Shown one piece after another: positions 1 through 21,903 of a stretch of 64,000 nucleotides of DNA. The stretch lies in the NCBI GenBank assembly GCA_964458605.1, contig CAYWLS010000008.1, positions 73,190 to 137,189 on the forward strand. Direction: 5' to 3'. A program made the translations under genes and the position numbers. The DNA is from an uncultured Hyphomicrobiales bacterium. Lineage in GTDB: Bacteria; Pseudomonadota; Alphaproteobacteria; Reyranellales; JAQSWP01. Under the pieces are notes generated by a model that saw nothing but the letters and a program-made list of their open reading frames with translations, was not told the origin of the DNA and ran no database searches. Position 1 is the first letter of the stretch. Each line of letters begins with the position of its first letter.

Positions 1-1067
1 CCGTTGCGGTAGCTGATCGAGCCGGTGATGCCCGAATAGCCATCGGTGGCCGCCAGAGCATCGCGGATCCTGACCGGATCGGCGGTGCCCGCCCGCCCGA
101 TCGCGTCGGCTACCAGGCCAAGCGTATCGTAGCCGAGAGCAGCGAAGGCGTTCTCCGGGTCCGTACCGTAGGCAGCTTTGTAGTCCCTGTAGAATTTGCG
201 GATCCCCGGCGTGGAGTCCGGCGCCATATAGGCATGTGTCGAGTAATACACGTTGGCGGCGGCCGTTCCGGCGACCTGAACAAGCAGCGGCGTGTCATAG
301 CCGTCGCCGCCGACCACCGGCTGCACGATGCCCCCCTCGCGAAGCTGCTTGACGATGGCCCCGATGTCATCGGGCATGGCGGAGATGTAGATGACATCCG
401 GCTTGACGGCGGACGCCTTGATCCTGGCGATCTGGCCGGCAAAGGATTTGTCGCCGCTTCGATAGTCGTCCCTGCCGACGATCTGGCCACCGTCATGGGT
501 GAAGGATTCGTCGAAATATCTGGCGAGGAGGACCGTGTAGTGGGTCGCGCTGTCGCGCAGCAGATAGACGTGCTTGCCCCCGAGCTTGTCGATGACGAAC
601 TCGGCGCCGGCCGCCGCCTGTACGTTGTCGCCGAAGCACGCCAGGAAAACGTCGTCGCCGACCTGCCCGGGCAGCTGGGGCGACGTGGCACCGGGGGTAA
701 CGAAGGGAATGCCCGCCTGCTGGAAGATCGGGCCGAGCGTCAGGACCGAATCGGAATCGGTGAAGCCGATCGCCACCGGAACACGGTCCTTGTTGATCAG
801 CCGGGCGGCGGTGGCGGCAATAACCGTCGGCTCGGTTTTGGTGTCGTAGAATACCAGCTCGAGTTTCCTGCCGAGCACTCCCCCGGCGTCGTTGATTTCC
901 TTCAGCTTCAGCCGGGCGCCGTTCAAGGCCGGGCCATCGAGCGAAGCCAGCGCGCCGGTGACGTTGAAGGGAGCGCCGATCCTGATGGGGTCGGCGGCCA
1001 GGACCGCAGTGGTTGCCAGTCCGGCCACCAGGAAGACACAGAACGCGACAATGGCATGCGGCCTCAT
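1..1067 (-). CDS. Branched-chain amino acid-type ABC transporter substrate-binding protein (3' end runs off the window)
   Basis: Frame absent from the ORF track, read by hand from ATG 1067: MRPHAIVAFCVFLVAG (signal peptide)...IRIGAPFNVTGALASLDGPALNGARLKLKEINDAGGVLGRKLELVFYDTK, a LivJ/LivK-like N-terminus. Confidence 0.88.
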   Translation of the reverse strand, partial: MRPHAIVAFCVFLVAGLATTAVLAADPIRIGAPFNVTGALASLDGPALNGARLKLKEINDAGGVLGRKLELVFYDTKTEPTVIAATAARLINKDRVPVAIGFTDSDSVLTLGPIFQQAGIPFVTPGATSPQLPGQVGDDVFLACFGDNVQAAAGAEFVIDKLGGKHVYLLRDSATHYTVLLARYFDESFTHDGGQIVGRDDYRSGDKSFAGQIARIKASAVKPDVIYISAMPDDIGAIVKQLREGGIVQPVVGGDGYDTPLLVQVAGTAAANVYYSTHAYMAPDSTPGIRKFYRDYKAAYGTDPENAFAALGYDTLGLVADAIGRAGTADPVRIRDALAATDGYSGITGSISYRN

Positions 1068-1294: not shown

Positions 1295-2110
1295 CTACAT
1301 CGTCTCCCCATGGGCGACCGAGATCGCCTGCCCGGTAATCGCCTGCGCGGCAGGCGATGCCAGCCATAGCACGGTCGCCGCCACGTCGGCAGGCTCGACC
1401 AGCCTGCCGGCCGGATTGACCGCCGCAAGCTCCGCCTTGATCTGCGCCGCATCGCGCCCGGTGCGCCGGGTCAGATCCTCGACCGCCGCCGCCAGCAATG
1501 GTGTATCGGTATAGCCAGGACAGACCGCGTTGACCGTCACGCCGCTGCGCACCACCTCCAGGGCAAGCGCGCGGGTAAATCCCAGCACCGCATGCTTGGT
1601 GGCGCAATAGCCGCTGGCATAGGCATAGCCGCGCAAGGCGGCGGTCGAGGCGATGTTGACGATGCGGCCATGCCGGCGCTCGATCATGGCGGGCAGGACG
1701 CGCTGGGTGCAGGCCACGACCTGTACCAGGTTGACTTCCAGCATCTGGCGCAGCGCTTCGGATGACAGACGAGACCATGGCGCCGTGACGGCGCGGCCCG
1801 CATTGTTGACCAGCACGTCGACGTCGCCCTGCCGCCGCCTGGCTTCGGCAAAAGCGCGATCGGCCGATTCGGCCTCGGTGAGATCGGCGGCAATCCAGTC
1901 GACGGCCGCGTTGGCGGACCGGAGCGCGTCGGCGCGCTCGCGCAGCACGTCGGCGCGGCGGCCGACAATGGTGATCCGCGCGCCTGCCGCGGCAAAGGCC
2001 TGCGCGATGGCCGCGCCTATTCCCGTACCGCCGCCGGTGATCAGAACGTGCCGGCCGGCCGCTGCCTCGCCGGTCCGCGCCACGCCATTCGATCGGAAAT
2101 CGCCGGACAT
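1295..2110 (-). CDS. SDR family oxidoreductase (hydroxyacyl-CoA dehydrogenase-like)
   Basis: TGGGTGIG, NNAG and YCATK motifs; start uncertain (ATG 2110 chosen). Confidence 0.9.
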   Translation of the reverse strand: MSGDFRSNGVARTGEAAAGRHVLITGGGTGIGAAIAQAFAAAGARITIVGRRADVLRERADALRSANAAVDWIAADLTEAESADRAFAEARRRQGDVDVLVNNAGRAVTAPWSRLSSEALRQMLEVNLVQVVACTQRVLPAMIERRHGRIVNIASTAALRGYAYASGYCATKHAVLGFTRALALEVVRSGVTVNAVCPGYTDTPLLAAAVEDLTRRTGRDAAQIKAELAAVNPAGRLVEPADVAATVLWLASPAAQAITGQAISVAHGETM

Positions 2111-2115
2111 CGGCG

Positions 2116-2532
2116 CTAAGGCGACCCCGCCGGGCGAAACTTCGGCAAAGGCACCTCGCCCGCCGCGTCGTCGAACATGACCTCGACCGGCATGTCGGCC
2201 GTCACGGCTTCGGGCGCGCAGCCGATCACGTTGGACACCAGCCGAACCCCTTCCTCGAGTTCGATCAGCGCCACGACATAGGGCACCTCGCCGGCGTATG
2301 CATCGGCAGGCACGGGATGGCGCACGACGATCCAGCTGAACACCCGGCCGCGTCCGGAGGCATCGATCCAGTCGTGATCGCCGGCGCCGCAGGCGGAACA
2401 GGTCGGCCCGGGCGGGAAGCGCGTGCGGCCGCATTGGGTGCAGCGCTGCACGATCAGCCGATGCTCGCGGCAGGCCTGCCAGAACGGCGTCGAGTCGGGA
2501 TCGAGCGCAGGGCGCGGTTTGAGCTGGGCCAT
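2116..2532 (-). CDS. DUF35 Zn-ribbon/OB-fold protein (ChsH2 C-terminal-like)
   Basis: C-terminal part of ORF 2116..3372 from MAQLKPRP; CxxC...CxxC (CTQC, CSAC), GRGRVFSWIVV, PYVVALIELEEGVRL. Confidence 0.92.
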   Translation of the reverse strand: MAQLKPRPALDPDSTPFWQACREHRLIVQRCTQCGRTRFPPGPTCSACGAGDHDWIDASGRGRVFSWIVVRHPVPADAYAGEVPYVVALIELEEGVRLVSNVIGCAPEAVTADMPVEVMFDDAAGEVPLPKFRPAGSP

Positions 2533-2534
2533 CG

Positions 2535-3692
2535 CTACCTCCGCAACACCATGGCGCTGCCGCAGGTCATGGCGCCTGCCGTGGTTAGCGCGATCTCCGC
2601 GCCGGGCACCTGGCGCGGGCCGGCGGCGCCGCGCAGTTGCTCGACTGCTTCCAGCACGTGATTGAAGCCGTGGATGTAGGCCTCCGACAGCAGACCGCCA
2701 TGCGTATTGACGGGCATCTTGCCGCCACGGTCGATCGCGCCGGAGGCGACGAACGGACCGCCCTCGCCTTCGGCGCAGAAGCCGAGCCCTTCGAGCTGCA
2801 TCACCACGCTGTAGGTGAAGCAGTCGTAGATCTCGGCCAGGTCGATGTCCTGCGGGCCGATGCCGGCGCTGCCCCACAGATCGTCGGCGATGTAGTGGGC
2901 ATAGTTGCGCACATGATCGGGCCAGCGGATCGCATCGAACAGATCGTCGCCCTGGTTGGGTCCGCCGCCATAGGCGCCGCCCATGATGTAGACCGGGGGA
3001 TGCGGCAGGTCGCGCGCCCGCTCCGCCGACGTCACCACCACGGCACAGGCGCCGTCGCTTTCCAGGCAGATGTCGTAGAGCCGGAACGGGTCGACGATCG
3101 GACGGCTGTTGAAGTAGTCGTCCATGCTCAACTTCTTGCGCTGCATGGCGCGTGGATTGGCCTCGGCATTGGCGCGCTGCATGACCGCGACATGGCCGAG
3201 CTGTTCGGCGGCGGTGCCGTATTTCACCATGTGCCGGCGGCACCACATTGCCATGGCCTGGGGATAGGTGATCCAGCCGAACGGCGCGGTGTACTGGGTG
3301 ATGCCGCGCGCATCGAAATCGCGACCGCCGCCCAGGCGATAGCCGGAGCGGCCGTTCATGGCGCGATAGCACACCACCGTCTTGGCCAACCCCGCTTCGA
3401 TCGCCGCGGCCGCCGCCAGCACGATCAGATTGGCGCCGTTGCCGCCGGCGGCGTAATCGACGGCGTAGCCGACATTGGGGATGCCCAGATTGGTGGCGAC
3501 CGCGATGCCGGGCACCGAGTCGTTGAACTGGAACGATACCAGCCCGTCGATATCCGATCGCGCCAGCCCGGCATCGGCAATGGCGCTGCCCGCCGCTTCG
3601 GTGGCCAGATCCAGAACCGTGCGGTTGGATTGCTTGGTATAGGCGGTGGCGCCTATGCCGCAGATCGCGTAGCGGTCGCGTAGCCGGTACAT
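2535..3692 (-). CDS. Thiolase-fold protein, Ltp2/SCP-x-like (probable acyl-CoA aldolase)
   Basis: AICGIG start, EIYDCFT, NTHGGLLSEAYIHG; no Cys at the canonical thiolase nucleophile position (DYAAGGNGAN); adjacent to DUF35. Confidence 0.88.
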   Translation of the reverse strand: MYRLRDRYAICGIGATAYTKQSNRTVLDLATEAAGSAIADAGLARSDIDGLVSFQFNDSVPGIAVATNLGIPNVGYAVDYAAGGNGANLIVLAAAAAIEAGLAKTVVCYRAMNGRSGYRLGGGRDFDARGITQYTAPFGWITYPQAMAMWCRRHMVKYGTAAEQLGHVAVMQRANAEANPRAMQRKKLSMDDYFNSRPIVDPFRLYDICLESDGACAVVVTSAERARDLPHPPVYIMGGAYGGGPNQGDDLFDAIRWPDHVRNYAHYIADDLWGSAGIGPQDIDLAEIYDCFTYSVVMQLEGLGFCAEGEGGPFVASGAIDRGGKMPVNTHGGLLSEAYIHGFNHVLEAVEQLRGAAGPRQVPGAEIALTTAGAMTCGSAMVLRR

Positions 3693-3699
3693 CTTCGCC

Positions 3700-4509
3700 T
3701 CATCGTCCTTCGAATGCGGGATCGCGCTTTTCGCGAAACGCCATCAGCCCTTCCATGGCGTCGTGCGAGCGCGTGGCGTAGCCATGCACCCGCTCGATCT
3801 CCATGCGCAGCGCCGCGTGTAGCGGCAAGGCCATGCCGTCGTCGACCAGACGCTTGGCCATCGCCAGGCCCAGGGCGCTTTTGCCGGACATCTCCCCGGC
3901 CAGCGCCAGCACCGTCGCCATCAGCTCGGCGCGCGGTACCGCCAGGCTGGCCAGGCCCAGGCGCTCGGCCTCGACCCCGTCGATGCCGCGCCCCGTGAGA
4001 ATGAGGTACTTGGCACGCAGCGCGCCGATCGCTCGCGGCAGGCGCTGCGAGCCGCCGGCGCCGGGCAATTGTCCGAAATTGAGATGGCCATCGGCGATCC
4101 GCGCCTCGCGCGCCGCCACCACCACGTCGCAGGCCAGCGCCAGTTCCAGCCCGCCGGCGACGCAATGGCCGTTGACCGCCGCGATGAAGATGCATGCGGA
4201 GCGCTCGATCGTGTCGAGCAGGATGAAGAAATCGTCGAGGAACGCCTGGAAGTCGGCCGGGCGGCGATAAAGGCCGATATAGCCCTCGAGGTCGCCGCCG
4301 GCGGAGAACGCCTTGCCCGCCCCCGTGATAACGACGAGGCGGCATTGCGGATCGGCCTCGGCCCGATGCACCGCCGCCGTCAGTGCCTTCACCGAGTGCC
4401 AGTCCAGGGGATTGAGCTTGTCGGGACGATTGAGCGTCAGGATGCGCGTATTGCCTTGCGCCTCGTACAGAACGCGCTCCGCCTCCAGATTGTCGGCTTC
4501 CCTCTCCAT
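3700..4509 (-). CDS. Enoyl-CoA hydratase/isomerase (crotonase) family
   Basis: LNRPDKLN, FSAGGDL, AVNGHCVAGGLELALACD; start set at MEREAD because the longer ORF runs into the operator region. Confidence 0.92.
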   Translation of the reverse strand: MEREADNLEAERVLYEAQGNTRILTLNRPDKLNPLDWHSVKALTAAVHRAEADPQCRLVVITGAGKAFSAGGDLEGYIGLYRRPADFQAFLDDFFILLDTIERSACIFIAAVNGHCVAGGLELALACDVVVAAREARIADGHLNFGQLPGAGGSQRLPRAIGALRAKYLILTGRGIDGVEAERLGLASLAVPRAELMATVLALAGEMSGKSALGLAMAKRLVDDGMALPLHAALRMEIERVHGYATRSHDAMEGLMAFREKRDPAFEGR

Positions 4510-4532
4510 CGGTCCACCGTAGCAGAATGTCC

Positions 4533-4547
4533 GATTGTCCGACAATC
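4533..4547. promoter_or_regulatory. Palindrome GATTGTC-C-GACAATC, putative FadR/GntR operator
   Basis: Perfect 7-bp inverted repeat in the AT-rich gap between the divergent crotonase and FadR genes; fits the TGT-N-ACA style of FadR-subfamily sites. Confidence 0.7.
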
Positions 4548-4600
4548 AATATTTTGCTATACAATTCATTAAGTTGATTCACGCAGCCAGGAAGTTGGAA

Positions 4601-5347
4601 ATGGCCCGTTCTGCCAATGCCGCAGCCGCCGCGCGGTTCGACCGGTTGCACCCGGTTCCCGCCTACCGGCTGGTCGCCAAGGCGATCCAGGACCGGATCG
4701 AAACCAGCCGCCTGCAGCCGGGCGATTGGCTGCCCACCGAAACGACCTTGGCCGAGCAGTTCGGCGTCAATCGCTCGACCATTCGCGAAGGCATTCGCCT
4801 GCTGGAGCAATCGGGTCTGCTCGACCGCGACGGCAAACGCCTGATCGTCACGCTGCCGCACTATATGGACCTTGCTTCGCGCGCCTCCCGAGCGCTGGTC
4901 ATGCACCAGGTGACGTTCCGCGAATTGTGGGAAGCCTCGATGGCCAGCGAACCGCTGATCGCCGCGCTGGCGGCCGAACGTGCCGATGCCGCCGCGCTGA
5001 GCGCGATGGAGCGCAATATCGCCGCAGCGGCCGCCGCGACCGACCGGCTGGACGATTTCATCGACCTCGACATCGCCTTCCACGAGCTGGTCGCCCGGGC
5101 GGCCGGCAATCGCGTGCTGATGCTGGCGCGCGAGCCGATCGGCCTGCTGTTCAAGCCGGCCGGCGAGACCATCCTGCCCCGCCTGGGCACGCATGGGCGG
5201 GTGGTCGACGCCCATCGCCAGATCCTGGCGGCGATCGGACGCGGCGACCGCACCGAAGCGCAACGCTGGATGGATCGCCACATGGCCGATTTCCGGCGCG
5301 GCTACGAGGCCGCCGGCGCCGATCTCGACAGCCCGCTCTACGGCTGA
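4601..5347 (+). CDS. GntR/FadR family transcriptional regulator (wHTH + FCD)
   Basis: LPTETTLAEQFGVNRSTIREGIRLLEQSGL helix-turn-helix; DIAFHELV and HRQILAAI FCD motifs. Confidence 0.93.
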   Translation: MARSANAAAAARFDRLHPVPAYRLVAKAIQDRIETSRLQPGDWLPTETTLAEQFGVNRSTIREGIRLLEQSGLLDRDGKRLIVTLPHYMDLASRASRALVMHQVTFRELWEASMASEPLIAALAAERADAAALSAMERNIAAAAAATDRLDDFIDLDIAFHELVARAAGNRVLMLAREPIGLLFKPAGETILPRLGTHGRVVDAHRQILAAIGRGDRTEAQRWMDRHMADFRRGYEAAGADLDSPLYG

Positions 5348-5416
5348 CCCCGCCCCCGCCTCGCCCGGATCGCAGCCCGGCACGGCTGCCGCGGCCGTCG
5401 CCTTGCCGGTCGCCGG

Positions 5417-5434
5417 TTAATGCTTTGACATTAA
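5417..5434. promoter_or_regulatory. TTAATG-ctttga-CATTAA operator-like palindrome overlapping TTGACA (-35)
   Basis: Read directly; TTGACA at 5425-5430; lies upstream of the badI-like gene; two more copies at 12092 and 12192. Confidence 0.75.
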
Positions 5435-5533
5435 TAATCTCATGTGCTGTCATTTTGCGCTGCCGTCCCCGCTGCCGCGCCAACGGCACGGATCGCGGAC
5501 GGCTTCATCGGCGAGCACTGGGCGCGAGGGGAC

Positions 5534-6337
5534 ATGACCTACCAGGACATTCTCTACCAAGAGCATGGTGGGGTGGCGCGCATCACCATCAACCGTCCCG
5601 ATCTCTACAATGCCATGCGCGCCCGCACCGTCGAGGAGCTGATCGAGGCATTCCAGGTGGCTGGATGGAAGCGCGAAATCGGCGTGATCGTGCTGACCGG
5701 CGCGGGCGATCGGGCGTTCTGCACCGGCGGCGACCAGTCTTCCCATGACGGCGGCTATGGCGGACGCGGCACGATCGGCCTGCCGATCGAGGAATTGCAG
5801 AGCATCATCCGCGACGTCCCCAAGCCGGTCATTGCCCGGGTCAACGGCTTCGCCATCGGCGGCGGCAACGTGCTCGCCACCCTGTGCGATCTCACCATCG
5901 CCGCCGATACCGCCCAGTTCGGGCAGGTCGGTCCCAAGGTCGGCTCGGTCGATCCGGGATTCGGCACCGCCTATCTGGCCCGCGTGGTCGGCGAAAAGCG
6001 CGCCCGGGAGATCTGGTATCTGTGCCGGCGCTACAGCGCCGAACAGGCCATGTCGTTCGGCCTGGTCAACGCGGTCGTGCCCGCGGCCGAACTCGATGCC
6101 GAGGTCGATCGCTGGTGCGCCGAGCTGATGGAACGCAGCCCGACCGCGCTGGCCATCGCCAAGCGCTCGTTCAATGCCGACACCGAGAGCATCCGCGGCC
6201 TGTCCAGCATGGGAATGGCCGCACTCGCCCTCTACTACGACACCGAGGAATCGAAGGAAGGCGGCCGCGCCTTCCGCGAAAAACGGAAGCCGAACTTCCG
6301 CAATCCGCCAGGCAGGAAAGGCTCTGGCGACAAATAG
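5534..6337 (+). CDS. badI: 2-ketocyclohexanecarboxyl-CoA hydrolase-like ring-opening crotonase (BadI/MenB clade)
   Basis: GDRAFCTGGDQS.HDG.Y.GRGT.GLP.EEL...IRDVPKPVIARV, SVDPGFGTA.LARVVGEK.AREIWY, ERSPTALAIAKRSFN and LYYDTEES closely match my recollection of Rhodopseudomonas palustris BadI. Confidence 0.82.
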   Translation: MTYQDILYQEHGGVARITINRPDLYNAMRARTVEELIEAFQVAGWKREIGVIVLTGAGDRAFCTGGDQSSHDGGYGGRGTIGLPIEELQSIIRDVPKPVIARVNGFAIGGGNVLATLCDLTIAADTAQFGQVGPKVGSVDPGFGTAYLARVVGEKRAREIWYLCRRYSAEQAMSFGLVNAVVPAAELDAEVDRWCAELMERSPTALAIAKRSFNADTESIRGLSSMGMAALALYYDTEESKEGGRAFREKRKPNFRNPPGRKGSGDK

Positions 6338-6354
6338 GAACAGGGAGGATCATC

Positions 6355-7386
6355 ATGAACAATAGCCGGTCGAGGCGGACGGCGTCGCCGCCGCACATGT
6401 CGATTTCCCGCCGCACGGCGCTGGGCGCCCTGTCGGCGCTGACCGCCGGTGGCGCGGTCATGCTGTCGGGTCTGGCACGCGCCGAAGATGCCTATCCCAA
6501 CAAGCCGGTGCGCATCGTGGTGCCGTTCGGCGCCGGCGGCGTAGCCGATGTCATCGTGCGTATCGTCGCCGACAAGCTGAGCGAATCGATGGGCCAGCGC
6601 TATTTCGTGGAGAATCGGCCCGGCGCAGGCGGCAGCATCGGCACCGATGTGGTGGCCCACGCCCCAGCCGACGGCTACACCATGGTGCTGGGCAGCCCGA
6701 GCTTGACGGTCAATCCCAGCCTGCAGAAGTCGCTTGGCTGGGATCCGATCAAGGATTTCGCGCCGGTCAGCATGCTGGCGACCTTCCCCAACATCATCTG
6801 CGCCAAGAAGGACCTCCCGGTAAAGGACATGAAGGAGTTGGTCGAGCTGGCGCGTTCCCAGCCCGGCAACATCACCTTCGGTTCGGTCGGCGTGGGCACC
6901 TCGATGCATCTGATCGGCGAGACGATCAATTCGCACGCCAAGGTCAAGATGACGCACGTGGCCTACAAGACGCAGGGCGACGCCATACAGGACCTGACGC
7001 GCGGCAATATCTCCTGGATGGCCTTGTCGGTGACCCTGGCCAAGCCGCTGATCGCCCAGGGCACCGTCAAGGCCTTGGCGGTCACCTCGGCCGAACGCTT
7101 CAAAGCCGTGCCGGAAATTCCCACCGTCGTGGAACAAGGCTTTCCCGACCTGGTGGTCGAGGCCTGGCTGGCGCTCTACATGCCGGCCAAGACGCCCGAC
7201 GCCATCGTGCAACGCACCAACAAGGCGATCGAGGCGGCGCTCAAGAGTCCCGACGTGGTGGCCAAGCTGGACAATTTCGGCGCCGTGCCGGCGCCCGACT
7301 CCAGCCAGCAACTGGCAACATTCACCAAGGACGAAGTGGAGCGATGGGCCAAGGTGGTCAAGGACGCCAATATCCAGCCGCAATGA
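6355..7386 (+). CDS. tctC: Bug/TctC tripartite tricarboxylate transporter substrate-binding protein with Tat-like signal
   Basis: SRRTAL twin-Arg signal; YPNKPVRIVVPFGAGG, VENRPGAGG, PTVVEQGFP; alternative start at 6397. Confidence 0.92.
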   Translation: MNNSRSRRTASPPHMSISRRTALGALSALTAGGAVMLSGLARAEDAYPNKPVRIVVPFGAGGVADVIVRIVADKLSESMGQRYFVENRPGAGGSIGTDVVAHAPADGYTMVLGSPSLTVNPSLQKSLGWDPIKDFAPVSMLATFPNIICAKKDLPVKDMKELVELARSQPGNITFGSVGVGTSMHLIGETINSHAKVKMTHVAYKTQGDAIQDLTRGNISWMALSVTLAKPLIAQGTVKALAVTSAERFKAVPEIPTVVEQGFPDLVVEAWLALYMPAKTPDAIVQRTNKAIEAALKSPDVVAKLDNFGAVPAPDSSQQLATFTKDEVERWAKVVKDANIQPQ

Positions 7387-8708
7387 ACTTTGGCCGTGGG
7401 ACCAGCATGAACGACCTGTTTGCCGCATCCGACAGCATCATGCGCGGGGAGCTGACGACCGCGCAGTGGTTCCGCACGGTGCCGCGCTGCCAGTTGACCG
7501 AGATGACGGCCGATAGCGCCGTGGTGGTATGCCGCGGCCTGTCGGCCAATGTCACGGTGTTGCGCACGCCCGAAGGGCTGCTGTTGGCCGATACCGGCGC
7601 GGTCGACACCGGCGGCGCCATCTTCGACGCCATTCGCGCCTGGGAGCCCGATCGGCCGGTCAGCACCATCGTCTATACCCACGGCCATTTCGACCATTGC
7701 AACGGCACCGTGCTGTACGACCAGGAGGCGGCGCAACGCGGCTGGAAGGCACCTACCGTGATCGCCCATGCCGACCTGCGCCGCCGCTTCGCCCGCTACG
7801 AGCGCACCAGCCCGCTCAACGCCGCCATCAACAAGCGCCAGTACAGCCGGCCCGATTTCCAGTGGCCGACGCGCTATCGCTATCCCGACCGCATATTTCA
7901 CGACGAGCTGGCCTTCTCGCTGGGAGGCGAGGATTTCCACCTGTTCCACGGTCGCGGCGAGACCGACGACCATGCCTGGCTGTGGGCGCCGCAGCGCAAG
8001 CTGGCGGTGGCCGGCGATTTCGTGATGTGGGCTGCGCCCAATGCCGGCAATCCGCAAAAGGCGCAGCGCTACGCCGCGGACTGGGCGGTCGCGCTGCGCG
8101 CCATGGCGGCGCACGAACCGGAAATCCTGATACCGGGCCACGGCCCGCCGATCCAGGGCGTGGCCACCATCGCCCACTATCTCGACGGCGCGGCACGCTG
8201 GCTGGAGCATTTGCACGACCGGACCGTCGATCTGCTCAATCAGGGTTTTCGCGTCGACGAGATCGTGCAACGCGTGCGCGTGCCGGCCGAGCTGGCAGCA
8301 CAGCCCTGGCTGCAGCCCACCTACGACGATCCCGAGTTCGTGGTGCGCAATGTCTGCCGTCTCTATGGCGGATGGTGGGACGGCAACCCCGCCCATCTGA
8401 AGCCGGCGTTGGAAGACGAACTGGCGCGGTCCCTGGCCGCCCTGGCCGGATCTCCGGCCGCCATCGCCAGCCATGCCGAGAAGCACCTGGCGGCAGGCGA
8501 TTTGCGCGTCGCCAGCCATCTGGCCGAATGGGCCGCGCTGGCCGCGCCCGACGATGCCTACGTGCAGTCGGTTCGTGCCACGGTCAACGAGCGGCGCGCC
8601 GAGGCCGAGCCCTCGCAGATGGCCAAGGGCATTTTCGGCGCCGCCGCGCGCGATGCGCGCTCGCGCATGGCCATGGCCGCCAAGGCCGGGCAGCGCGGCT
8701 CGGCGTAA
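7383..8708 (+). CDS. Metallo-beta-lactamase-fold alkyl-sulfatase-like hydrolase (SdsA/BDS1 type III family, no SCP2 domain)
   Basis: THGHFDH, GETDDH, AGDF, PNAGNPQK, PGHG and YGGWWDGNP motifs; ATGA overlap with the tctC stop (alternative start 7407). Confidence 0.82.
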   Translation: MNFGRGTSMNDLFAASDSIMRGELTTAQWFRTVPRCQLTEMTADSAVVVCRGLSANVTVLRTPEGLLLADTGAVDTGGAIFDAIRAWEPDRPVSTIVYTHGHFDHCNGTVLYDQEAAQRGWKAPTVIAHADLRRRFARYERTSPLNAAINKRQYSRPDFQWPTRYRYPDRIFHDELAFSLGGEDFHLFHGRGETDDHAWLWAPQRKLAVAGDFVMWAAPNAGNPQKAQRYAADWAVALRAMAAHEPEILIPGHGPPIQGVATIAHYLDGAARWLEHLHDRTVDLLNQGFRVDEIVQRVRVPAELAAQPWLQPTYDDPEFVVRNVCRLYGGWWDGNPAHLKPALEDELARSLAALAGSPAAIASHAEKHLAAGDLRVASHLAEWAALAAPDDAYVQSVRATVNERRAEAEPSQMAKGIFGAAARDARSRMAMAAKAGQRGSA

Positions 8709-8720
8709 ACCGGCGGCGCC

Positions 8721-10841
8721 TCAGCCGCGGCGGTCGGTCTCGATCACGGCATCGACCGCCAGCGCACCGCTTCCTTCGGGGAATACCAGGAACGGATTGG
8801 CCTCGACGCTCAGGATGGCGTCGGCATTGGCCGCCGCCGCGCGCGACAGCGCGCTCAGCGCCCGGGCCAGCGCTTCCTTGTCGGCGGGCGGCGCGCCACG
8901 GGCGCCGTCGAGGATGCGGGCGCCGCGGATCTCGCCGATCATGCGCCGCGCCTCGTCGATGCCGAACGGAGCGATCCGGAAGCTGACATCCTTCAGGATC
9001 TCGACGAACACGCCACCCAGGCCGAACATCACCACCGGGCCGAAGCTGGGGTCGCGCACCACGCCCAGGATGCACTCGACCCCGCCCTTCAGCATCGGCG
9101 CCACCAGGCAGCCGCGAATGGCGGCATCGGGCAGCCGCGCGCGGACGGCGGTCACGATTTCATCGTAAGCGGCCCCGACGGCTTGGGCATCGGCGAGATT
9201 CAGCTTCACCCCGCCGACATCGGATTTGTGCAGCAATCCGCTGGCCACGATCTTGACCACCGCCGGATAGCCCAGCCGGTCGGCCGCCGCGATCGCCGCC
9301 GCGCGCGAGGTCGCCAGCGCATGCTCGACCACCGGCACGCCAGCCGCGTCGAGCCACGCCAGCGCTTCCGGCTCGTCCAGGACAGCCGGTAACGCAACGG
9401 TCGCGCCCGCCCGCGGCCGGGCCTCTTCGGCCTGGACGAAGGACCGAGCAAAGAAGCGCAGCGCAGCCATGGTGCGGATCGCATGGGTGGGCTCGCGATA
9501 GGCCGGAATGCCCATGGCTTCGAACACCCGCTGGCATTCGGTCGACATGAAGCCGGACACCATGAACGGCCGGTCGGGATAGCGCGCCAGCAATTCGCGC
9601 CACACCGGCAGATGCGGCTCGATCGCCTCCGGCGTGCGATAGAGCCCGCCCTGGTAGGCGACGATGCCGGCATAGTCGGCGCCCTCCATGATCAGCCGCA
9701 TGGCGCGGCCGAACAGCGGCGGATCGTTGATCACATAGCCGGTGAGGTCGAGCGGATTCTCGACGCCGGCGATCGGCACCATCTGCTTCATCGCGCGCTT
9801 GGCCGCGTCGGGCAACTGCGTCACCGCCAAGCCGGCCTCGACCGCCGTGTCGGCCAGCAGCACGCCGACGCCGCCCGACACCGTGACGATCCCCAGGCTG
9901 TCGTTGCGCGGCAGCGGCGCGATCGCCGCGGCGCAGCCGACATCGAAGAACTCCTCGATCGAGTTGGCGCGATAGACGCCGTACTGGCGGAACATCGCGT
10001 CGTAGACGTCGTCGGCGCCGGCCAGCGCCGCCGAATGCGATTGGGCGGCGCGCGCGCCGGCCTCGGTACGCCCCAGCTTGACCATCACCACCGGCTTGCG
10101 CCGGCGACGCGCCAGCGCCAGCGCCTCGAGCATGCGCGGGCCGTGGCGGCAGGTTTCGATGTAGCAGAGAATCACTTTCGTGTTGTCGTCCTCGGCCAGG
10201 AAGGCGATGCATTCGGCGATCTCGATATCGGCTTCGTTGCCAGTGGCGATGACGTAGCTGAACGACACGCCGCGTTCCTTGGCCATCAGGCTCGACATGC
10301 CGGCAAAGGCGCCGCTCTGGGTGACCAGGCCGATGCGGCCATCGGCCGGCATGGAATCGGGAAAGGCGGGATGGAAGCTGGCCACCAGGCCGCGGTCGAA
10401 ATCGGCAAAGCCGACGCTGTTGGGCCCCAGCACGCGGATGCCCCGCTCGCGGGCCAGCGCCGCCAGCTCGGCCTGGCGCGTCGCGCCCTCGGCATCGACC
10501 TCGGCAAAGCCGCCGGCGAACACCACCACGCCGGCAACGCCCTTGTCGGCGCAGCGGCGCACCACATCGTTGACCTGCTCGGCCGACACCGAGCAGATCG
10601 CCAGGTCGATCGGCGCGTCGATATCGGCGATATCGCGATAGGCGCGCAGACCCTGAATGGCTTCGGCGCGCAGGTTGACCGGGTAGATTTCGCCGGAGAA
10701 TCCGTATTTGCGCATCAGCGCGATCGGCCGGCCGCCGACCCGCGCCGCATCGGCCGAGGCGCCGATCACCGCGACGCGCCGGGCATTGAGGATGCGGCGC
10801 AACGAGGCGGTGTCGATCGAGCTGGAAGCGGCGTCGCGCAT
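8721..10841 (-). CDS. Acetate-CoA ligase family (ADP-forming acyl-CoA synthetase, fused alpha-beta)
   Basis: VAVIGAS, RVLGPNSVG, SQSG-like TQSGA, GNEAD, SHSAALAG, LHKSDVGGV, FGPVVMFGLGG. Confidence 0.93.
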   Translation of the reverse strand: MRDAASSSIDTASLRRILNARRVAVIGASADAARVGGRPIALMRKYGFSGEIYPVNLRAEAIQGLRAYRDIADIDAPIDLAICSVSAEQVNDVVRRCADKGVAGVVVFAGGFAEVDAEGATRQAELAALARERGIRVLGPNSVGFADFDRGLVASFHPAFPDSMPADGRIGLVTQSGAFAGMSSLMAKERGVSFSYVIATGNEADIEIAECIAFLAEDDNTKVILCYIETCRHGPRMLEALALARRRRKPVVMVKLGRTEAGARAAQSHSAALAGADDVYDAMFRQYGVYRANSIEEFFDVGCAAAIAPLPRNDSLGIVTVSGGVGVLLADTAVEAGLAVTQLPDAAKRAMKQMVPIAGVENPLDLTGYVINDPPLFGRAMRLIMEGADYAGIVAYQGGLYRTPEAIEPHLPVWRELLARYPDRPFMVSGFMSTECQRVFEAMGIPAYREPTHAIRTMAALRFFARSFVQAEEARPRAGATVALPAVLDEPEALAWLDAAGVPVVEHALATSRAAAIAAADRLGYPAVVKIVASGLLHKSDVGGVKLNLADAQAVGAAYDEIVTAVRARLPDAAIRGCLVAPMLKGGVECILGVVRDPSFGPVVMFGLGGVFVEILKDVSFRIAPFGIDEARRMIGEIRGARILDGARGAPPADKEALARALSALSRAAAANADAILSVEANPFLVFPEGSGALAVDAVIETDRRG

Positions 10842-10843
10842 CG

Positions 10844-12013
10844 CTATTTTCCCTTGCGGCCCTTGGCCTGAAGCATCTCGCGCGCGATGGTCAGCAGATG
10901 GATCTGGCTGGTGCCCTCCGCCATGCGACCGCCCCGCACGTCGCGATAGAGCAGTTCGGCGCCGGAATAGTCGGCGATATAGCCGCGGGCGCCGAAGATC
11001 TGCACCACACGGTCGGCGACCCGACACACCATTTCAGTGGCGAAGTACTTGGCGATCGAGGCCGCCATGGTGACGTCCTCGCCGGCATCGTACTTGCGCG
11101 CCGTCTCCAGCAGCAATGCGCGCGCGGCTTGGATATCGACCTGGCATTCCGCCAGCATGGCCTGGACCAGCTGATGGCTGCCGATCGGCGCGCGACCGTT
11201 GCGCTCGCCGCGCGCGAAATCCAATGCCAGCTCGACCATCCGCATGGCCGGCCCCACGCTCAAGCCCGACAGGTTGATGCGCTGGAACAGGAAGCCGCGC
11301 ATCAGGCTCTCGAAGCCGTGCCCCGGCTCGTTGCCCAGCATGGCGTCGGCGGGCACGCGGCAGTTGCGCACATGCACCTCGGACATCGGCATGCCGTGCT
11401 GGCCCATCTTGCGGTATGGCTTGCCGATCTCCAGCCCTTCCATGCCGGGCTTGAGCAGAAAGGTGGTGATGCCCCCCAGGCCGCCGGCATCGTTTTCGGT
11501 GCGGGCGTACATCAGGATGACATCGGCGACCGGCGCCAGCGAGACATAGCATTTGGCGCCGTTCAGCACCCAGCCATTGCCGTCGCGCACCGCCCGCGTC
11601 CGCATCTTGGTGGCCTGCGAACCGCCGATGTCCAGCTCGGACACGGCGAAGGCCGGTATCACCTCGCCGCTGGCGATTTTCGGCAGATAATAGCGCTTCT
11701 GCTGTTCGGTGCCTTCGACCGCGAACGGCACCACGCCGATGCCGATGTTGTTCGACAGCCGGGTGCGGAACGACAGCGAGCACTGCGACACTTCCATGTT
11801 GATATGGGCCAGCTCCTCGCAGGTCATGCCCCAGCCGCCATATTCCTCCGGCACGCCGAAAGCGAACAGGCCGCGATCGCGCATCTCCTGCACCACCGCC
11901 GCCGGCAGCGCGCCGGCGCGATCGACCTCCGGTTCGAGCGGCTGCCAGCTATTGCGCACCACGTCGCGCACGATGGCGATGGCCTTGTCCAGACGCTGCT
12001 GGTCGCGAATCAT
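10844..12013 (-). CDS. Acyl-CoA dehydrogenase
   Basis: VPEEYGG, LNGAKCY, KMG, ASIAKYFATE, YRDVR...EGTSQI (catalytic Glu position retained). Confidence 0.93.
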   Translation of the reverse strand: MIRDQQRLDKAIAIVRDVVRNSWQPLEPEVDRAGALPAAVVQEMRDRGLFAFGVPEEYGGWGMTCEELAHINMEVSQCSLSFRTRLSNNIGIGVVPFAVEGTEQQKRYYLPKIASGEVIPAFAVSELDIGGSQATKMRTRAVRDGNGWVLNGAKCYVSLAPVADVILMYARTENDAGGLGGITTFLLKPGMEGLEIGKPYRKMGQHGMPMSEVHVRNCRVPADAMLGNEPGHGFESLMRGFLFQRINLSGLSVGPAMRMVELALDFARGERNGRAPIGSHQLVQAMLAECQVDIQAARALLLETARKYDAGEDVTMAASIAKYFATEMVCRVADRVVQIFGARGYIADYSGAELLYRDVRGGRMAEGTSQIHLLTIAREMLQAKGRKGK

Positions 12014-12091
12014 CGTCTTCCCCCGAACCTCGTTGCCGGCTGTGCGCAACGCGGCGCCGCCGATTTTAGTCAATGAACCCACATCGTTTTT

Positions 12092-12109
12092 TTAATGTCA
12101 ATCCATTAC
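12092..12109. promoter_or_regulatory. TTAATG-tcaatc-CATTAC operator-like site (one mismatch) containing TTGACA on the minus strand
   Basis: Read directly, upstream of the acyl-CoA dehydrogenase/CoA ligase operon; minus-strand TTGACA at 12101-12096. Confidence 0.7.
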
Positions 12110-12191
12110 TTTGTCATGCAGTACGGCTGGCCGCTGGATCGCTGGCGATCGGAGCGCGCCCGGGCCAGCCAGCGATCGGCGCTGCGACAAA

Positions 12192-12209
12192 TTAATGTTT
12201 TGGCATTAA
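12192..12209. promoter_or_regulatory. TTAATG-ttttgg-CATTAA operator-like palindrome upstream of the TetR gene
   Basis: Read directly; TTGGCA at 12200-12205 and TATACT at 12221-12226 form a promoter-like pair with a short 15-bp spacer. Confidence 0.72.
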
Positions 12210-12258
12210 ATCGAGCCGCCTATACTCTCATGGCGGCGGGCCTAGCGAGGGGAGCGTC

Positions 12259-13026
12259 ATGACCAGGACGGCGAAGCGACCATCGACCCGACAAAGGGCC
12301 GCGCCCGAAGCGGCGCGGCGCGGCGACACGCGCATGCGGCTGATCGAGACGGCCGAGAAGCTGGTCGCCCAGCACGGCATCGACGGCATCACCGCCAAGC
12401 AGATCATCCAGGCGGCAGGCGTGCGCAACGAATCGGCGTTGCAGTACCATTTCGGCAGCCGCAGCGCGCTGATCGATGCGATCTTCGAGTTGCGCATGTC
12501 GCCGATCAACGCGCACCGGCTGGACATGCTGGCCGAGCTCGATAGCCGCGGCAGCCCGCCGACGATCCGCGACATCGTTCGCGTGTTGGTGTTGCCGCTG
12601 GCGCAAAGCCTGATCTCGAGCCGCCGCAAGAGCTATTACTGCCGCTTCCTCGAGCGCGCGCAAAGCTCGCCCGAGCATGTCAACAACCTGATCCAGCGGC
12701 GGCACTATTCGAGCGTATTGGGCTGCGCCGCGCATTTCCGCTATCTCTGCGCCAACCTGCCTCATGCCGTGACCAACCAACGCCTGTCCATCGCCCTCAA
12801 GACGCTGGGCCAGGGCGCGGCCGACATCGAGCGCCGGCTGTCGGACCCCGCCCAGGCGGTCAGCCGCGAACAGATCGAGGCCGAGATCGGCAATCTGACC
12901 GACTGCATCGTGGGAATCATGTCGGCGGAGGTGGTCGACGGCAAGGCGATGGCGGCGCACAAGACGGCAAGACCGACGGCGACGCCGGATGGCGCCGCCA
13001 GGAGGATTCGCCAGCCTTCCCGATAG
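12259..13026 (+). CDS. TetR/AcrR family transcriptional regulator
   Basis: LIETAEKLVAQHGIDGITAKQIIQAAGVRNESALQYHFGSR N-terminal HTH. Confidence 0.92.
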   Translation: MTRTAKRPSTRQRAAPEAARRGDTRMRLIETAEKLVAQHGIDGITAKQIIQAAGVRNESALQYHFGSRSALIDAIFELRMSPINAHRLDMLAELDSRGSPPTIRDIVRVLVLPLAQSLISSRRKSYYCRFLERAQSSPEHVNNLIQRRHYSSVLGCAAHFRYLCANLPHAVTNQRLSIALKTLGQGAADIERRLSDPAQAVSREQIEAEIGNLTDCIVGIMSAEVVDGKAMAAHKTARPTATPDGAARRIRQPSR

Positions 13027-13064
13027 CGACGCCACGGCGAAAACAGACAGAGGGAACCTGTCGC

Positions 13065-13538
13065 ATGCCGAATTTCATCGAACGCAGACGCGATTTCTAT
13101 GCCGGCGCGCTGATGGCGCTGATCGGCATCGCCGCCGTCGCGATCGGCCAGCAATACGGAATCGGATCGCTCACGGCGATGAAACCGGGGTTCTTTCCCG
13201 TCGCTGTCGGTGCGCTGCTGGTCCTGGTCGGCATCGCCATCGCCGTCGTCGGCGGGCGCGGCGAGGAGCCGGACGCGGCGCACGCCGCAGTACCGCCCTG
13301 GGACTGGCGCGGAGGTTGCTGCATCCTCGCCGGCACGGTCAGCTTCATCGTGCTGGGCCGGTATCTGGGAATGGTACCCGCCACCTTCGCCTGCGTGTTG
13401 GTTTCGGCGCTGGGCGACCGCAAGATGGCGGTCGCCAATGCGGTGGTCCTTGCCATCGCCATCGCCGGATTCGGGGTCGTGCTGTTCCATTACCAACTGA
13501 AGATTCCCTTCCCGCTGTTTCGCTGGGGCACGTCATGA
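13065..13538 (+). CDS. tctB: Tripartite tricarboxylate transporter TctB
   Basis: Four hydrophobic segments, MKPGFFP motif, ATGA overlap with tctA. Confidence 0.9.
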   Translation: MPNFIERRRDFYAGALMALIGIAAVAIGQQYGIGSLTAMKPGFFPVAVGALLVLVGIAIAVVGGRGEEPDAAHAAVPPWDWRGGCCILAGTVSFIVLGRYLGMVPATFACVLVSALGDRKMAVANAVVLAIAIAGFGVVLFHYQLKIPFPLFRWGTS

Positions 13539-15031
13539 TCGACACCGCGCTGACCGACCTGTGGCGCGGCTTCGAGGTCGCGCTCGACGGCACCAACGTC
13601 AAATGGTGCTTCGTCGGCGTGATGATCGGCAACATGGTGGGCGTCCTGCCCGGCATCGGCGTCATGGCGGCGGTCTCGATCCTGCTGCCGCTGACGTTCG
13701 GCATGCCGCCGGTCGCCGCCCTGCTGATGCTGGCCGGCATCTACTACGGCGCCCAATATGGCGGGGCGATCTGCTCGATCATCCTCAATCTGCCCTGCCA
13801 TCCGCCGCATGCGGTGACCTGCCTCGACGGCTATCCCTTGACCATGCAAGGCCGCGGCGGCGTGGCGCTGTTCATCACCATGCTGTCGTCCTTCGTCGGC
13901 GCCTCCTTCGGCATCACGGTGATGATCTTCTTCGCGCCGGTGCTGGTGAAGCTGGCGCTGGAATTCGCCGATGTCGAGGTCTGCGCGCTGATGCTGCTGG
14001 GGATGCTGGCAGGCTCGACCCTGGCGCGCGGCTCGGCGCTGAAGGGTGTGGCGATGACCCTGCTCGGATTGCTGCTGGGCATGGTCGGCACCGACGTCAA
14101 TACCGGCTTGCACCGCTTCACCTTCGGCGAGAGCAAGCTCTACGACGGCATCGAGATCGTCGCCTTGGCGCTGGGACTGTTCGGCATCGCCGAGTTCCTC
14201 AAGAGCGTCAACGCCGTCAATCCGCTCAATGCCGCCCTGACGCGCATCCGCATGCGCGACATGTGGCCCAGTCGGACGGATCTGAAGCAGGCCGCTTTCC
14301 CGATGATGCGCGGCACCCTGATCGGCAGCCTGTGCGCGCTGATCCCCGGCACCGGACCGACCATCGCCTCGTTCATCTCCTACGGCTTCGAAAAGCGCAT
14401 CTCGCGCACGCCCGAACGCTTCGGCACCGGAGCCATCGCCGGCGTCGCCAGCCCCGAGGCCTCGACCCACTCCTCCGTGCAGGGCGATTTCATCCCGACC
14501 ATGTGCCTGGGCATTCCAGGCGATGCGGTGATGGCGCTGATGCTGGGCGCTCTGCTGATCCAGGGCATCACCCCCGGTCCGCAGCTGATCACCGAACACC
14601 CCGACCTGTTCTGGGGGCTGATCGCCAGCTTCTGGGTGGGCAACATCATGCTGGTGATCCTGAACGTGCCGATGATCGGCCTTTGGGTGAAGCTGCTGGA
14701 AATCCCCTATCGGTATCTCTATCCCAGCGCGCTGTTCTTCATCTGCATCGGCGTGTACAGCGCCAACAACGATCTGTTCCTGGTCAAGGAGGCCCTGGTG
14801 ATCGGGGTGATCGGCTACATCCTGCTTCGCCTGGGCTTCCATCCCGCGCCCGTATTGTTGGGCTTCGTTTTGGGCTCGCGCTTCGAAGAGGGATTTCGCC
14901 GCTCCATGCTGTTCTCGCATGGCGACTTGATGGTCTATTTGACCCACCCGGTCAGCGCCGGCTTCCTGGGATTGGCAGTCGGACTGATCGGCATTCAGGT
15001 CTATAGCGCCGCCAGGCGGCGCCGGCGCTAG
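13535..15031 (+). CDS. tctA: Tripartite tricarboxylate transporter TctA permease
   Basis: GVLPGIG, GIYYGAQYGG, DGYPLTMQGRGG, RFTFG, GIPGDAVMALMLGAL. Confidence 0.95.
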   Translation: MIDTALTDLWRGFEVALDGTNVKWCFVGVMIGNMVGVLPGIGVMAAVSILLPLTFGMPPVAALLMLAGIYYGAQYGGAICSIILNLPCHPPHAVTCLDGYPLTMQGRGGVALFITMLSSFVGASFGITVMIFFAPVLVKLALEFADVEVCALMLLGMLAGSTLARGSALKGVAMTLLGLLLGMVGTDVNTGLHRFTFGESKLYDGIEIVALALGLFGIAEFLKSVNAVNPLNAALTRIRMRDMWPSRTDLKQAAFPMMRGTLIGSLCALIPGTGPTIASFISYGFEKRISRTPERFGTGAIAGVASPEASTHSSVQGDFIPTMCLGIPGDAVMALMLGALLIQGITPGPQLITEHPDLFWGLIASFWVGNIMLVILNVPMIGLWVKLLEIPYRYLYPSALFFICIGVYSANNDLFLVKEALVIGVIGYILLRLGFHPAPVLLGFVLGSRFEEGFRRSMLFSHGDLMVYLTHPVSAGFLGLAVGLIGIQVYSAARRRRR

Positions 15032-21746: not shown

Positions 21747-21903
21747 GACTCTTCCCCAGCTTCTTCTTGTCATCGCGCCGTTGCGCTAGCGAGTGGTAGA
21801 GGCCAAACGCCGGCACTGGCCGGCAGCCGCAGACATTATCCTCGCCTCACGCCTGCGTAAACCGCTTCGGCGGAGAGATCCCGCGCAATGCCGCGGAACC
21901 CAG

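Follow-up and report, generated by a model that had tools for sequence, protein, structure and literature searches.

A mosaic gene cluster combining a BadI-clade hydrolase with Ltp2-like aldolase and hydrolase-ligase units, putatively for the catabolism of an imported carboxylic acid

What is a BadI-like hydrolase, of the kind that opens alicyclic rings in the bad-ali pathway, doing among genes that are foreign to that pathway? The question is raised by positions 1295-15031 of a 64,000-nt stretch (the window) of contig CAYWLS010000008.1, from an uncultured Hyphomicrobiales bacterium of a wastewater metagenome. A first-pass annotation had described this locus as a BadI-centred alicyclic-acid catabolic cluster built from non-orthologous parts, and all of the enzymes it named are present according to Pfam and NCBIfam scans and the gene calls of relatives. 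From the identities and signature residues of the genes, their synteny and operators and the purifying selection on them, we propose, with a little less than even confidence, that the locus is instead a co-regulated catabolic mosaic acting on an imported carboxylic acid, in which a recent add-on containing BadI would have joined two older units; the reactions, their order and the substrate class would be those outlined below.

The BadI-like protein is encoded at 5534-6337 on the plus strand. Against the BadI equivalog model TIGR03210 it reaches 455.8 bits, 12 bits short of the cut-off of 467.6 and within the range of 456-512 bits reached by homologues in the canonical setting, where BadI lies between a short-chain dehydrogenase/reductase (SDR) and an acyl-CoA dehydrogenase (ACAD). 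Models for MenB give 346.7 bits against a cut-off of 380 and 315 against 342.7, and the BadI model exceeds every one of them by at least 109 bits. Hundreds of proteobacterial proteins, many of which bear the name BadI, share 72-83% identity with it. A simple neighbour-joining tree was built from 77 BadI-type sequences with two MenB sequences as the root; in it, the protein falls within the alphaproteobacterial BadI sequences, and a long branch parts it from MenB. By these sequence comparisons the protein belongs, in line with the first-pass annotation, to the BadI clade (2-ketocyclohexanecarboxyl-CoA hydrolase type) and not to MenB.

The description of the cluster as BadI-centred did not survive comparison with other loci. 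None of 80 loci with BadI homologues carries the thiolase-fold, DUF35, metallo-beta-lactamase (MBL)-fold hydrolase or ADP-forming ligase gene of the window beside BadI, and TctC- or TctA-like genes occur at two of the 80 only, with 27-46% identity. In these loci BadI usually follows directly on an SDR and is in turn followed by an ACAD, and the resulting SDR-BadI-ACAD order, found in 37 of 75 comparison loci, is lacking in the window. Searches started with the MBL and the thiolase-fold protein recovered the reverse situation, i.e. a core of MBL, ADP-forming ligase and transporter without BadI in six to seven other lineages, most of which also carry the crotonase and the Ltp2-like/DUF35 genes. 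The arrangements are DUF35-thiolase-fold-crotonase, TctC-MBL and ligase-ACAD in locus L174; crotonase, TctC-MBL, ligase-ACAD-CoA transferase-TctAB and TetR in L085 (Reyranellaceae); DUF35-thiolase-fold-crotonase and GntR-TctC-MBL-ligase in L086/87; TetR-TAXI-TRAP-ligase-MBL, GntR and crotonase-thiolase-fold-DUF35 in L088 (Oceanibacterium); and ligase-TAXI-TRAP, MBL and TetR in L090/94. BadI and the SDR that follows DUF35 are found only in the window lineage and in a 94%-identical relative, contig L081, and no SDR lies beside DUF35 in L174 and L086. Given this restriction, the two genes are a lineage-specific addition to an older core, and, as judged from their distribution, a recent add-on gained together in the window lineage.

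BadI also occurs in a different non-canonical context in an ENA metagenome contig (L170, 6930-16789), where an 83%-identical protein is encoded with an aldo-keto reductase, an Old-Yellow-Enzyme-type protein resembling 2,4-dienoyl-CoA reductase, two ACADs, a family III CoA transferase, a crotonase and an AMP ligase, an arrangement reminiscent of the Castellaniella mrc cluster.

How the add-on was fitted into the core is indicated by a palindrome, TTAATG-N6-CATTAA, which is present three times in the window against 0.16 copies expected; none of 100 shuffles gave three, and 2.06 Mb of unrelated control loci contained one match. One site (TTAATGctttgaCATTAA, 5417-5434) lies 100 bp upstream of badI, and two lie in the divergent gap between the ACAD and TetR genes, at 12092-12109 (one mismatch, proximal to the ACAD start) and at 12192-12209 (TTAATGttttggCATTAA, proximal to the tetR start). 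The sites are conserved in L081, L085 and L174, and they flank the TetR promoter region in four lineages. In L085 and L174, which lack BadI, the first site falls in the crotonase/TctC gap, hence badI has been inserted between the operator and tctC. Since the operator of the TetR promoter region also precedes badI-tctC-mbl, the two units are wired together in the window, and the ligase-ACAD and TetR-TctBA operons probably share their regulation with badI. The TetR-family regulator (12259-13026, plus strand; Pfam TetR_N) probably binds these putative sites, a pairing that we infer. The BadR operator CAAN4TTG is absent upstream of badI, and a scan for sigma-70 promoters and terminators returned nothing exceeding chance.

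The same gap has a further history in relatives. A family III CoA-transferase gene lies between ACAD and TetR in L081 (16478-17839) and in L085, L174 has a truncated open reading frame (ORF) at this place, and the gene is absent from the window (12014-12258). In L081 it stands exactly between two TTAATG-N6-CATTAA sites, which in the window are 100 bp apart; apparently the gene has been lost in the window lineage.

A second palindrome, ATTGTC-N-GACAAT with the core TTGTC-N-GACAA, is located at 4534-4546 (ATTGTCcGACAAT) in the divergent gap between the crotonase gene and a gene for a GntR/FCD regulator (4601-5347, plus strand; Pfam GntR and FCD, with a 248-aa gene called on L084 and L081), and it is a putative operator of the FadR subfamily of GntR proteins. 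The palindrome has been kept in front of the crotonase gene in L081, L084, L086/87, L088 and L172 (Alsobacter). GntR is its probable binder, with ATTGTCNGACAAT as the candidate site, the two being matched by inference. We note that in L172 the core occurs twice, upstream of the crotonase (8161-8173) and again upstream of a LivK-type gene (13816-13828); as no GntR gene lies within 9 kb there, the regulator may be encoded elsewhere. The FadR and TetR modules, whose independent occurrence elsewhere the first-pass annotation would have counted against its own reading, are real units. In other genomes the GntR- and TetR-linked units are indeed separate, but in the window they are interleaved by a common operator.

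The gene map behind these comparisons was based on Pfam and NCBIfam scans and on gene calls of an identical contig and of L081; G+C is approximately 67% across the region, and third-position G+C singles out one gene per stretch. The genes form four transcription units, with gaps of -4 to 38 nt within units: badI, tctC and mbl constitute a tight operon with badI first, the ACAD is translationally coupled to the ligase, and the SDR gene starts 5 nt downstream of DUF35. The whole block of 13 genes recurs in L081, with Ks of 0.35-0.78 and Ka/Ks of 0.05-0.20 for all 13 genes (0.061 for badI), and sub-blocks recur in at least five further lineages. Since the block is kept in L081, its sub-blocks recur and the two palindromic operators are conserved in position, the co-location of the genes is not due to chance.

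The unit behind the TTGTC-N-GACAA operator (unit A) is built around the thiolase-fold protein (2535-3692, minus strand), an Ltp2/Sal-type protein whose best match in the PDB is TcLtp2 (6ok1; 285 bits, 45% identity). In register with TcLtp2, a Gly within AAGGNGAN occupies the position of the nucleophilic Cys of thiolases, which we take to be the same position when counted by hand against the thiolase motif. The segment I-Y-D-C-F aligns to Y294-D-H-F of TcLtp2, and SEA-Y-IHG to its Tyr344. An assignment as SCP2-type thiolase was rejected because of the Gly at the Cys position and because the motif is YDCF and not HDCF. In the steroid aldolase CtSal, the corresponding motif is Y302-D-C304-Y, likewise with Gly at the nucleophile position, whereas SCP2 thiolases have HDCF; the catalytic pairs are Tyr294/Tyr344 in Ltp2 and Tyr302/Cys304 in Sal, and Gly at the nucleophile position precludes thiolysis (PMC12329534). 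With the nucleophilic Cys missing and aldolase signatures in place, the protein is unable to perform thiolysis; it is predicted to be a retro-aldolase. Its predicted partner is a free-standing DUF35 protein (2116-2532, minus strand) with a zinc ribbon, C-x2-C-x10-C-x2-C, and an OB fold (zf-ChsH2 and OB_ChsH2_C were called on the L081 orthologue), the C4 finger pattern having been described for DUF35 (PMC12329534).

The Ltp2-like family has a constant length of 385 aa and 73-81% identity across many Alphaproteobacteria and Rokubacteria. Its members form a trio with the crotonase and DUF35 in nine lineages, and none of these nine contexts contains steroid genes. Allostella vacuolata (L171, 8202-18399), Alsobacter metallidurans (L172, 8190-18483) and Oceanibacterium hippocampi (L088, 12362-21269) share an operon of crotonase, Ltp2-like protein (385 aa), DUF35, PaaK-like AMP ligase, a 58-68-aa ORF, two SDRs and a LivHMGF/K-type ABC importer, the gene for its LivK-type binding protein being observed in L171 and L172. 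The Rokubacteria contig L173 has the trio alone. An ACAD in the Allostella neighbourhood of unit A is 67% identical to one in the BadI locus L170, a link between the two kinds of neighbourhood that is suggestive only.

The crotonase of the trio (3700-4509, minus strand; Pfam ECH_1, 189 bits) was aligned with 3-hydroxypropionyl-CoA dehydratase of M. sedula (5zai), EchA8 of M. tuberculosis and eight orthologues. The first catalytic Glu is kept (GGLE), and the second is replaced by a His inside the motif (A/G)DGH-x-x-F-x-Q-x-PGAG, which is invariant in nine of nine orthologues (window, L081, L085, L086, L088 and L171-L174); the two positions are presumably equivalent to Glu144 and Glu164 of the rat enzyme. 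No NCBIfam model scores above its cut-off, and no BadK model is among the matches listed. As far as we found in the literature searched, the Glu/His proteins constitute an undescribed crotonase subfamily, and the crotonase of the window, a conserved partner of the aldolase with the Glu-to-His change, is not a stand-in for BadK by ancestry.

The unit behind the TTAATG-N6-CATTAA operator (unit B) comprises transporter, hydrolase, ligase and dehydrogenase. TctC (6355-7386, plus strand; Pfam TctC, 241 bits) is a periplasmic binding protein with a Tat-type leader (SRRTAL), TctB (13065-13538, plus; Pfam TctB) is the small membrane subunit, and TctA (13535-15031, plus; Pfam TctA, 480 bits, gene also called on L084) is the large one, with a start that overlaps tctB by 4 nt. 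These are the three parts of one complete tripartite tricarboxylate transporter (TTT), split over two places, which the first-pass annotation had counted as two uptake systems. Solved relatives of TctC, i.e. AdpC (5oei), Bug27 and TphC, all score approximately 180-208 bits with AdpC marginally on top; the scores being so alike, they do not discriminate, and a ligand assignment from them was abandoned.

The MBL (7407-8708, plus strand) has an alkyl-sulfatase dimerisation domain (Pfam Alkyl_sulf_dimr, 107 bits). At 433 aa it is shorter than the alkyl sulfatases (620-670 aa), cytoplasmic, with an N-terminus (MNDLFAASDS) without signal peptide, and without an SCP2 domain. The HxHxDH metal motif is intact, THGHFDH being invariant in 18 homologues along with many other residues. 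In a Foldseek search with an AlphaFold (AF2) model (pLDDT 89), Pisa1, SdsA1 and YjcS came first (TMq 0.73-0.79), matching the model over its whole length and being themselves covered to only approximately 55%, followed by generic MBLs and the thioesterase PqsE. Hence, sulfatase-like is accurate as a statement on the predicted fold. Only some of the residues that we take to be the sulfate ligands of Pisa1 align with conserved residues of the MBL. A relationship to the acesulfame sulfatase of Bosea and Chelatococcus was considered and dropped, the gene for the latter lying in a different context, with an ABC transporter and an amidase (PMC10413263).

The mbl gene adjoins a ligase gene in seven lineages, together with a TTT or TAXI-TRAP transporter and with a 4-nt overlap in L086. 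This adjacency suggests that the hydrolase may deliver the free acid for the ligase, which fits the earlier idea of a conjugated substrate. The association is confined to one MBL clade: 80 metagenome loci with MBL homologues of 43-53% identity have unrelated housekeeping contexts, except L090/L094 (ligase, TAXI-TRAP and TetR) and L100. In the metagenome contigs L090 (4402-12100) and L094 (4370-12124), the ligase, a TAXI binding protein and a fused DctQM lie on one strand, the MBL is divergent and TetR follows, a minimal version of the module without crotonase, aldolase and ACAD.

The ligase (8721-10841, minus strand) is an ADP(NDP)-forming acyl-CoA synthetase with fused alpha and beta parts and the full five-domain architecture (Pfam CoA_binding_2, Succ_CoA_lig, Ligase_CoA_2 and ATP-grasp_5 among the matches), including a phosphohistidine, His269, in SHSAALAG. 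Its best relative in the PDB is an archaeal 4-hydroxybutyrate-CoA ligase (8wzu, 365 bits). In the NDP-forming FCS1 the phosphohistidine is His267, and the superfamily includes the sphingomonad feruloyl-CoA synthetase (FerA/FCS1), pimeloyl-CoA synthetase and DddX (PMC6388921; PDB 7cm9). With feruloyl-CoA and pimeloyl-CoA synthetases among its members, an ADP-forming ligase in a catabolic cluster is unusual and not unprecedented, so that the ligase does come from a different family than AliA, as noted before, yet from one with catabolic precedents.

The ACAD (10844-12013, minus strand) was assigned by Pfam, and the alignment reveals the catalytic Glu in an EGT motif. It reaches 154 bits on the AliB model (cut-off 575) and otherwise gives only generic NCBIfam matches of approximately 217-224 bits against cut-offs of at least 600; with these scores and the catalytic Glu present, identities as 3-sulfinopropionyl-CoA desulfinase or acryloyl-CoA reductase were discarded. 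The SDR of the add-on (1295-2110, minus strand; Pfam adh_short, 195 bits) displays the classical motifs TGxxxGIG, NNAG and YxxxK and scores 170 bits on the BadH model TIGR03206 (cut-off 431). Ligase, ACAD and SDR are thus not orthologues of AliA, AliB and BadH, in agreement with the first-pass annotation.

Taken together, we propose that the cluster would operate as follows. Unit B, under the operator probably bound by TetR, would import an anionic, possibly conjugated acid through TctABC; the MBL would remove the conjugating group, which might be a sulfate or other ester or a lactone; the ADP-forming ligase would produce the CoA thioester, into which the ACAD would introduce a 2,3 double bond. 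In unit A, under the operator probably bound by GntR, the enoyl-CoA would be hydrated by the Glu/His crotonase, and the Ltp2-like/DUF35 pair would cleave the 3-hydroxyacyl-CoA in a retro-aldol reaction to acetyl-CoA or propionyl-CoA and a ketone or aldehyde. Retro-aldol cleavage is the bacterial solution for a beta-carbon that belongs to a ring or carries a branch and cannot be oxidised. In the add-on, the SDR would oxidise a ring 2-hydroxyacyl-CoA, and BadI would hydrolytically open the ring of the resulting 2-oxo-cycloalkane-1-carboxyl-CoA to a diacid of the pimeloyl-CoA type; the joint gain of SDR and BadI fits such a Bad-like branch of hydration, oxidation and ring hydrolysis.

The substrate is best read as an imported, possibly conjugated, alicyclic or beta-branched carboxylate, and the presence of two C-C cleavage routes fits alicyclic acids with side chains or a second carboxylate. 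As an illustration only, 2-carboxycyclohexylacetate would employ every enzyme except the MBL, as its aldol cleavage would yield 2-oxocyclohexanecarboxylate, the CoA ester of which is the substrate of BadI.

Several observations weigh against this proposal. The score of BadI stays slightly below the NCBIfam equivalog cut-off; the crotonase lacks the second catalytic Glu and thus may or may not act as a hydratase; no gene near the cluster specifies an enzyme that would process the aldehyde or ketone product; and the MBL is only approximately 20% identical to alkyl sulfatases and without their substrate-binding SCP2 domain. In addition, the core is found without ACAD in L086 and L088, hence the ancestral core may serve a substrate that is not alicyclic.

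A more far-reaching version of the proposal, which we offer as speculation and consider unlikely as a whole, would make the Glu/His crotonase, the 385-aa Ltp2-like protein and the free DUF35 a widespread non-steroid machine that removes acetyl-CoA at a ring or branched beta-carbon, and that together with the MBL-ligase pair constitutes an undescribed catabolic route. The window lineage would then have merged this route with ring hydrolysis by BadI, giving a pathway with two cleavages for alicyclic diacids of the naphthenic type, e.g. 2-carboxycyclohexylacetate. The orphan (1-hydroxycyclohexan-1-yl)acetyl-CoA lyase reaction is a possible activity of the machine.

Alternatively, the cluster may encode a Bad/Ali-like pathway of linear order, with cyclohexanecarboxylate or a near analogue as substrate, as modelled in the first-pass annotation. 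Ligase, ACAD, crotonase, SDR and BadI would then lead to pimeloyl-CoA, and the thiolase-fold/DUF35 pair and MBL would be additions that act in later beta-oxidation or on a substituent. All five steps indeed have a candidate, BadI is bona fide and was gained together with the SDR, and the bad-ali pathway is widespread and can be used aerobically (PMC9795900). However, the crotonase is fixed to the aldolase in nine lineages and carries the Glu-to-His change, the thiolase-fold protein is incapable of thiolysis for want of the nucleophilic Cys, the core exists without BadI in six to seven lineages, orthology to AliA, AliB and BadH is missing and no BadR operator precedes badI. We judge this pathway to be unlikely.

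Still less readily can we see the core of transporter, MBL, ligase, crotonase and aldolase as a non-beta-oxidative, FerA/FerB-like route for a conjugated aryl- or alkenyl-propenoic acid, e.g. a sulfated or esterified hydroxycinnamate, with BadI and SDR as separate passengers. Feruloyl-CoA synthetases belong to the same NDP-forming superfamily as the ligase, the cores of L086 and L088 do without ACAD, as expected for substrates that are already unsaturated, the trio sits elsewhere with PaaK-like ligases and Liv-type ABC importers, and a dianionic conjugate would presumably suit uptake by TTT or TAXI-TRAP systems. Yet badI is located inside the operon, behind the common operator and under strong purifying selection, an aldehyde dehydrogenase is found at none of the loci, and the window scans detected no aromatic ring-cleavage genes nearby.

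We consider it improbable that the cluster serves the degradation of medium-chain alpha,omega-dicarboxylates of the pimelate or adipate type, with a PauA-like ligase, an AdpC-like TctC and an incidental BadI. Pimeloyl-CoA synthetases are NDP-forming, the adipate-binding AdpC is the marginally top relative of TctC in the PDB, and the product of BadI is pimeloyl-CoA; against this, there is no thiolase with a nucleophilic Cys, TctC is equidistant from binders of unrelated ligands, and the MBL and aldolase are left unexplained. Finally, that the 5534-6337 protein is the naphthoate synthase MenB and the cluster unrelated to ring opening is very nearly negligible, as the points in its favour, namely MenB enzymes as the closest solved structures (318 bits), because no BadI structure has been deposited, and the MenB label that some databases give to close homologues, face the higher score on the BadI model, the failure at all MenB cut-offs, the long branch to MenB and the lack of men genes in the window in Pfam and NCBIfam scans.

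The proposal of a mosaic cluster for an imported acid concerns the 13 genes from the SDR to TctA. To the left of the SDR, at a distance of 227 bp and just beyond the region covered by the first-pass annotation, the gene for a second binding protein, a LivK-type (Peripla_BP_6-like) periplasmic protein with signal peptide (1-1067, minus strand), runs past the window edge. Liv-type ABC genes follow the crotonase/Ltp2-like/DUF35 unit in Allostella, Alsobacter and Oceanibacterium, but the LivK-type gene is not adjacent to the cluster in L081, and its membership is uncertain. The left flank of L081 (91-5676) is unlike that of the window, with an amidase, NicX, an alpha/beta hydrolase, an FAD monooxygenase and a cupin-HTH regulator; hence, the 13-gene block is the conserved unit, with its left border at the SDR. 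The right flank is of a housekeeping nature (coaD, gyrA, a hybrid histidine kinase, ssb, uvrA, secDF and serS). Two genes there are unrelated to the cluster, i.e. that of the hybrid histidine kinase with CHASE3, PAS and two receiver domains (19146-21773, minus strand) and a squalene/phytoene synthase family gene (32300-33208, minus strand) among ssb, uvrA, secDF, yajC and serS.

In conclusion, the parts of the cluster stem from known families, their combination is undescribed in the literature searched, and it probably represents a real, new variant pathway. What appears most interesting is not BadI itself, but the widespread non-steroid Ltp2-like/DUF35/Glu-His-crotonase unit, the MBL-ligase pair and the placement of BadI behind a foreign operator. 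If the proposal is correct, BadI, normally locked in the bad-ali operon, would have been recruited behind the operator of another pathway, widening the substrate range of that pathway; the Ltp2/Sal-type aldolases, so far associated only with steroid side-chain cleavage, would join a much wider conserved family; and the recurrent pairing of a truncated sulfatase-like MBL with an ADP-forming ligase would gain a function. All of this bears on the degradation of recalcitrant alicyclic or branched acids in wastewater.

Known systems share individual parts with the cluster, but the bad-ali and mrc clusters, the steroid hydratase-aldolase systems and the type III sulfatases each depart from it in defining features. 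Literature on BadI with ADP-forming ligases, and on DUF35/aldolase pairs with PaaK-like ligases, did not describe it. By description, the ligase resembles the NDP-forming synthetases FerA/FCS1, pimeloyl-CoA synthetase and DddX in the fused five-domain architecture and the phosphohistidine, whereas its best solved relative is the archaeal enzyme. The type III alkyl sulfatases SdsA1, Pisa1 and YjcS are the best fold matches of the MBL and have the HxHxDH motif and the dimerisation domain in common with it; unlike them, at approximately 20% identity, it has neither a C-terminal SCP2 domain nor a secretion signal and is always paired with a CoA ligase. The steroid systems ChsE1-E2/ChsH1-H2/Ltp2 of Actinobacteria and Scd/Shy/Sal of Proteobacteria also employ a thiolase fold without nucleophilic Cys (PMC12329534). 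The window protein combines the Tyr of YDxF and the Tyr344 equivalent, as in Ltp2, with the Cys of Sal, and it shares with the steroid systems an obligatory DUF35 zinc-ribbon partner and an ACAD and a hydratase that precede the aldolase. The differences are a hydratase that is a crotonase and not MaoC-type, a DUF35 that is free and not fused to the hydratase, a setting without steroid catabolic genes and, at 45% identity to TcLtp2, a separate family of fixed 385-aa length.

A precedent for the recruitment of BadI is mrcABCDEFGH of Castellaniella defragrans, in which the BadI homologue MrcE opens a substituted 2-oxocyclohexane-1-carboxyl-CoA; mrc retains partners resembling BadH and BadK (85% and 53% identity to the Bad proteins of Azoarcus) and is without aldolase, MBL and ADP-forming ligase (PMC4109377). 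The Castellaniella protein GeoC was not used as a parallel for the ADP-forming ligase, since the paper refers only to an ATP-dependent ligase (PMC4109377). The bad-ali pathway, known from R. palustris and, as aliB-badH-badI-aabA and aliA-badK, from Aromatoleum sp. CIB, where it is usable aerobically (PMC9795900), has the BadI-clade hydrolase in common with the window, and likewise CoA activation, desaturation, hydration, oxidation and hydrolytic ring opening. Unlike bad-ali, however, the window has an ADP-forming ligase in place of the AMP-forming AliA, an ACAD and an SDR that are not orthologous to AliB and BadH, and a Glu/His crotonase tied to an aldolase in place of a BadK-type enzyme. In addition, its badI lies away from the usual badH and aabA neighbours, without the MarR-type BadR or the CAAN4TTG operator, and is accompanied by an aldolase, an MBL-fold hydrolase and a TTT transporter that the cluster of the window adds to the bad-ali scheme.

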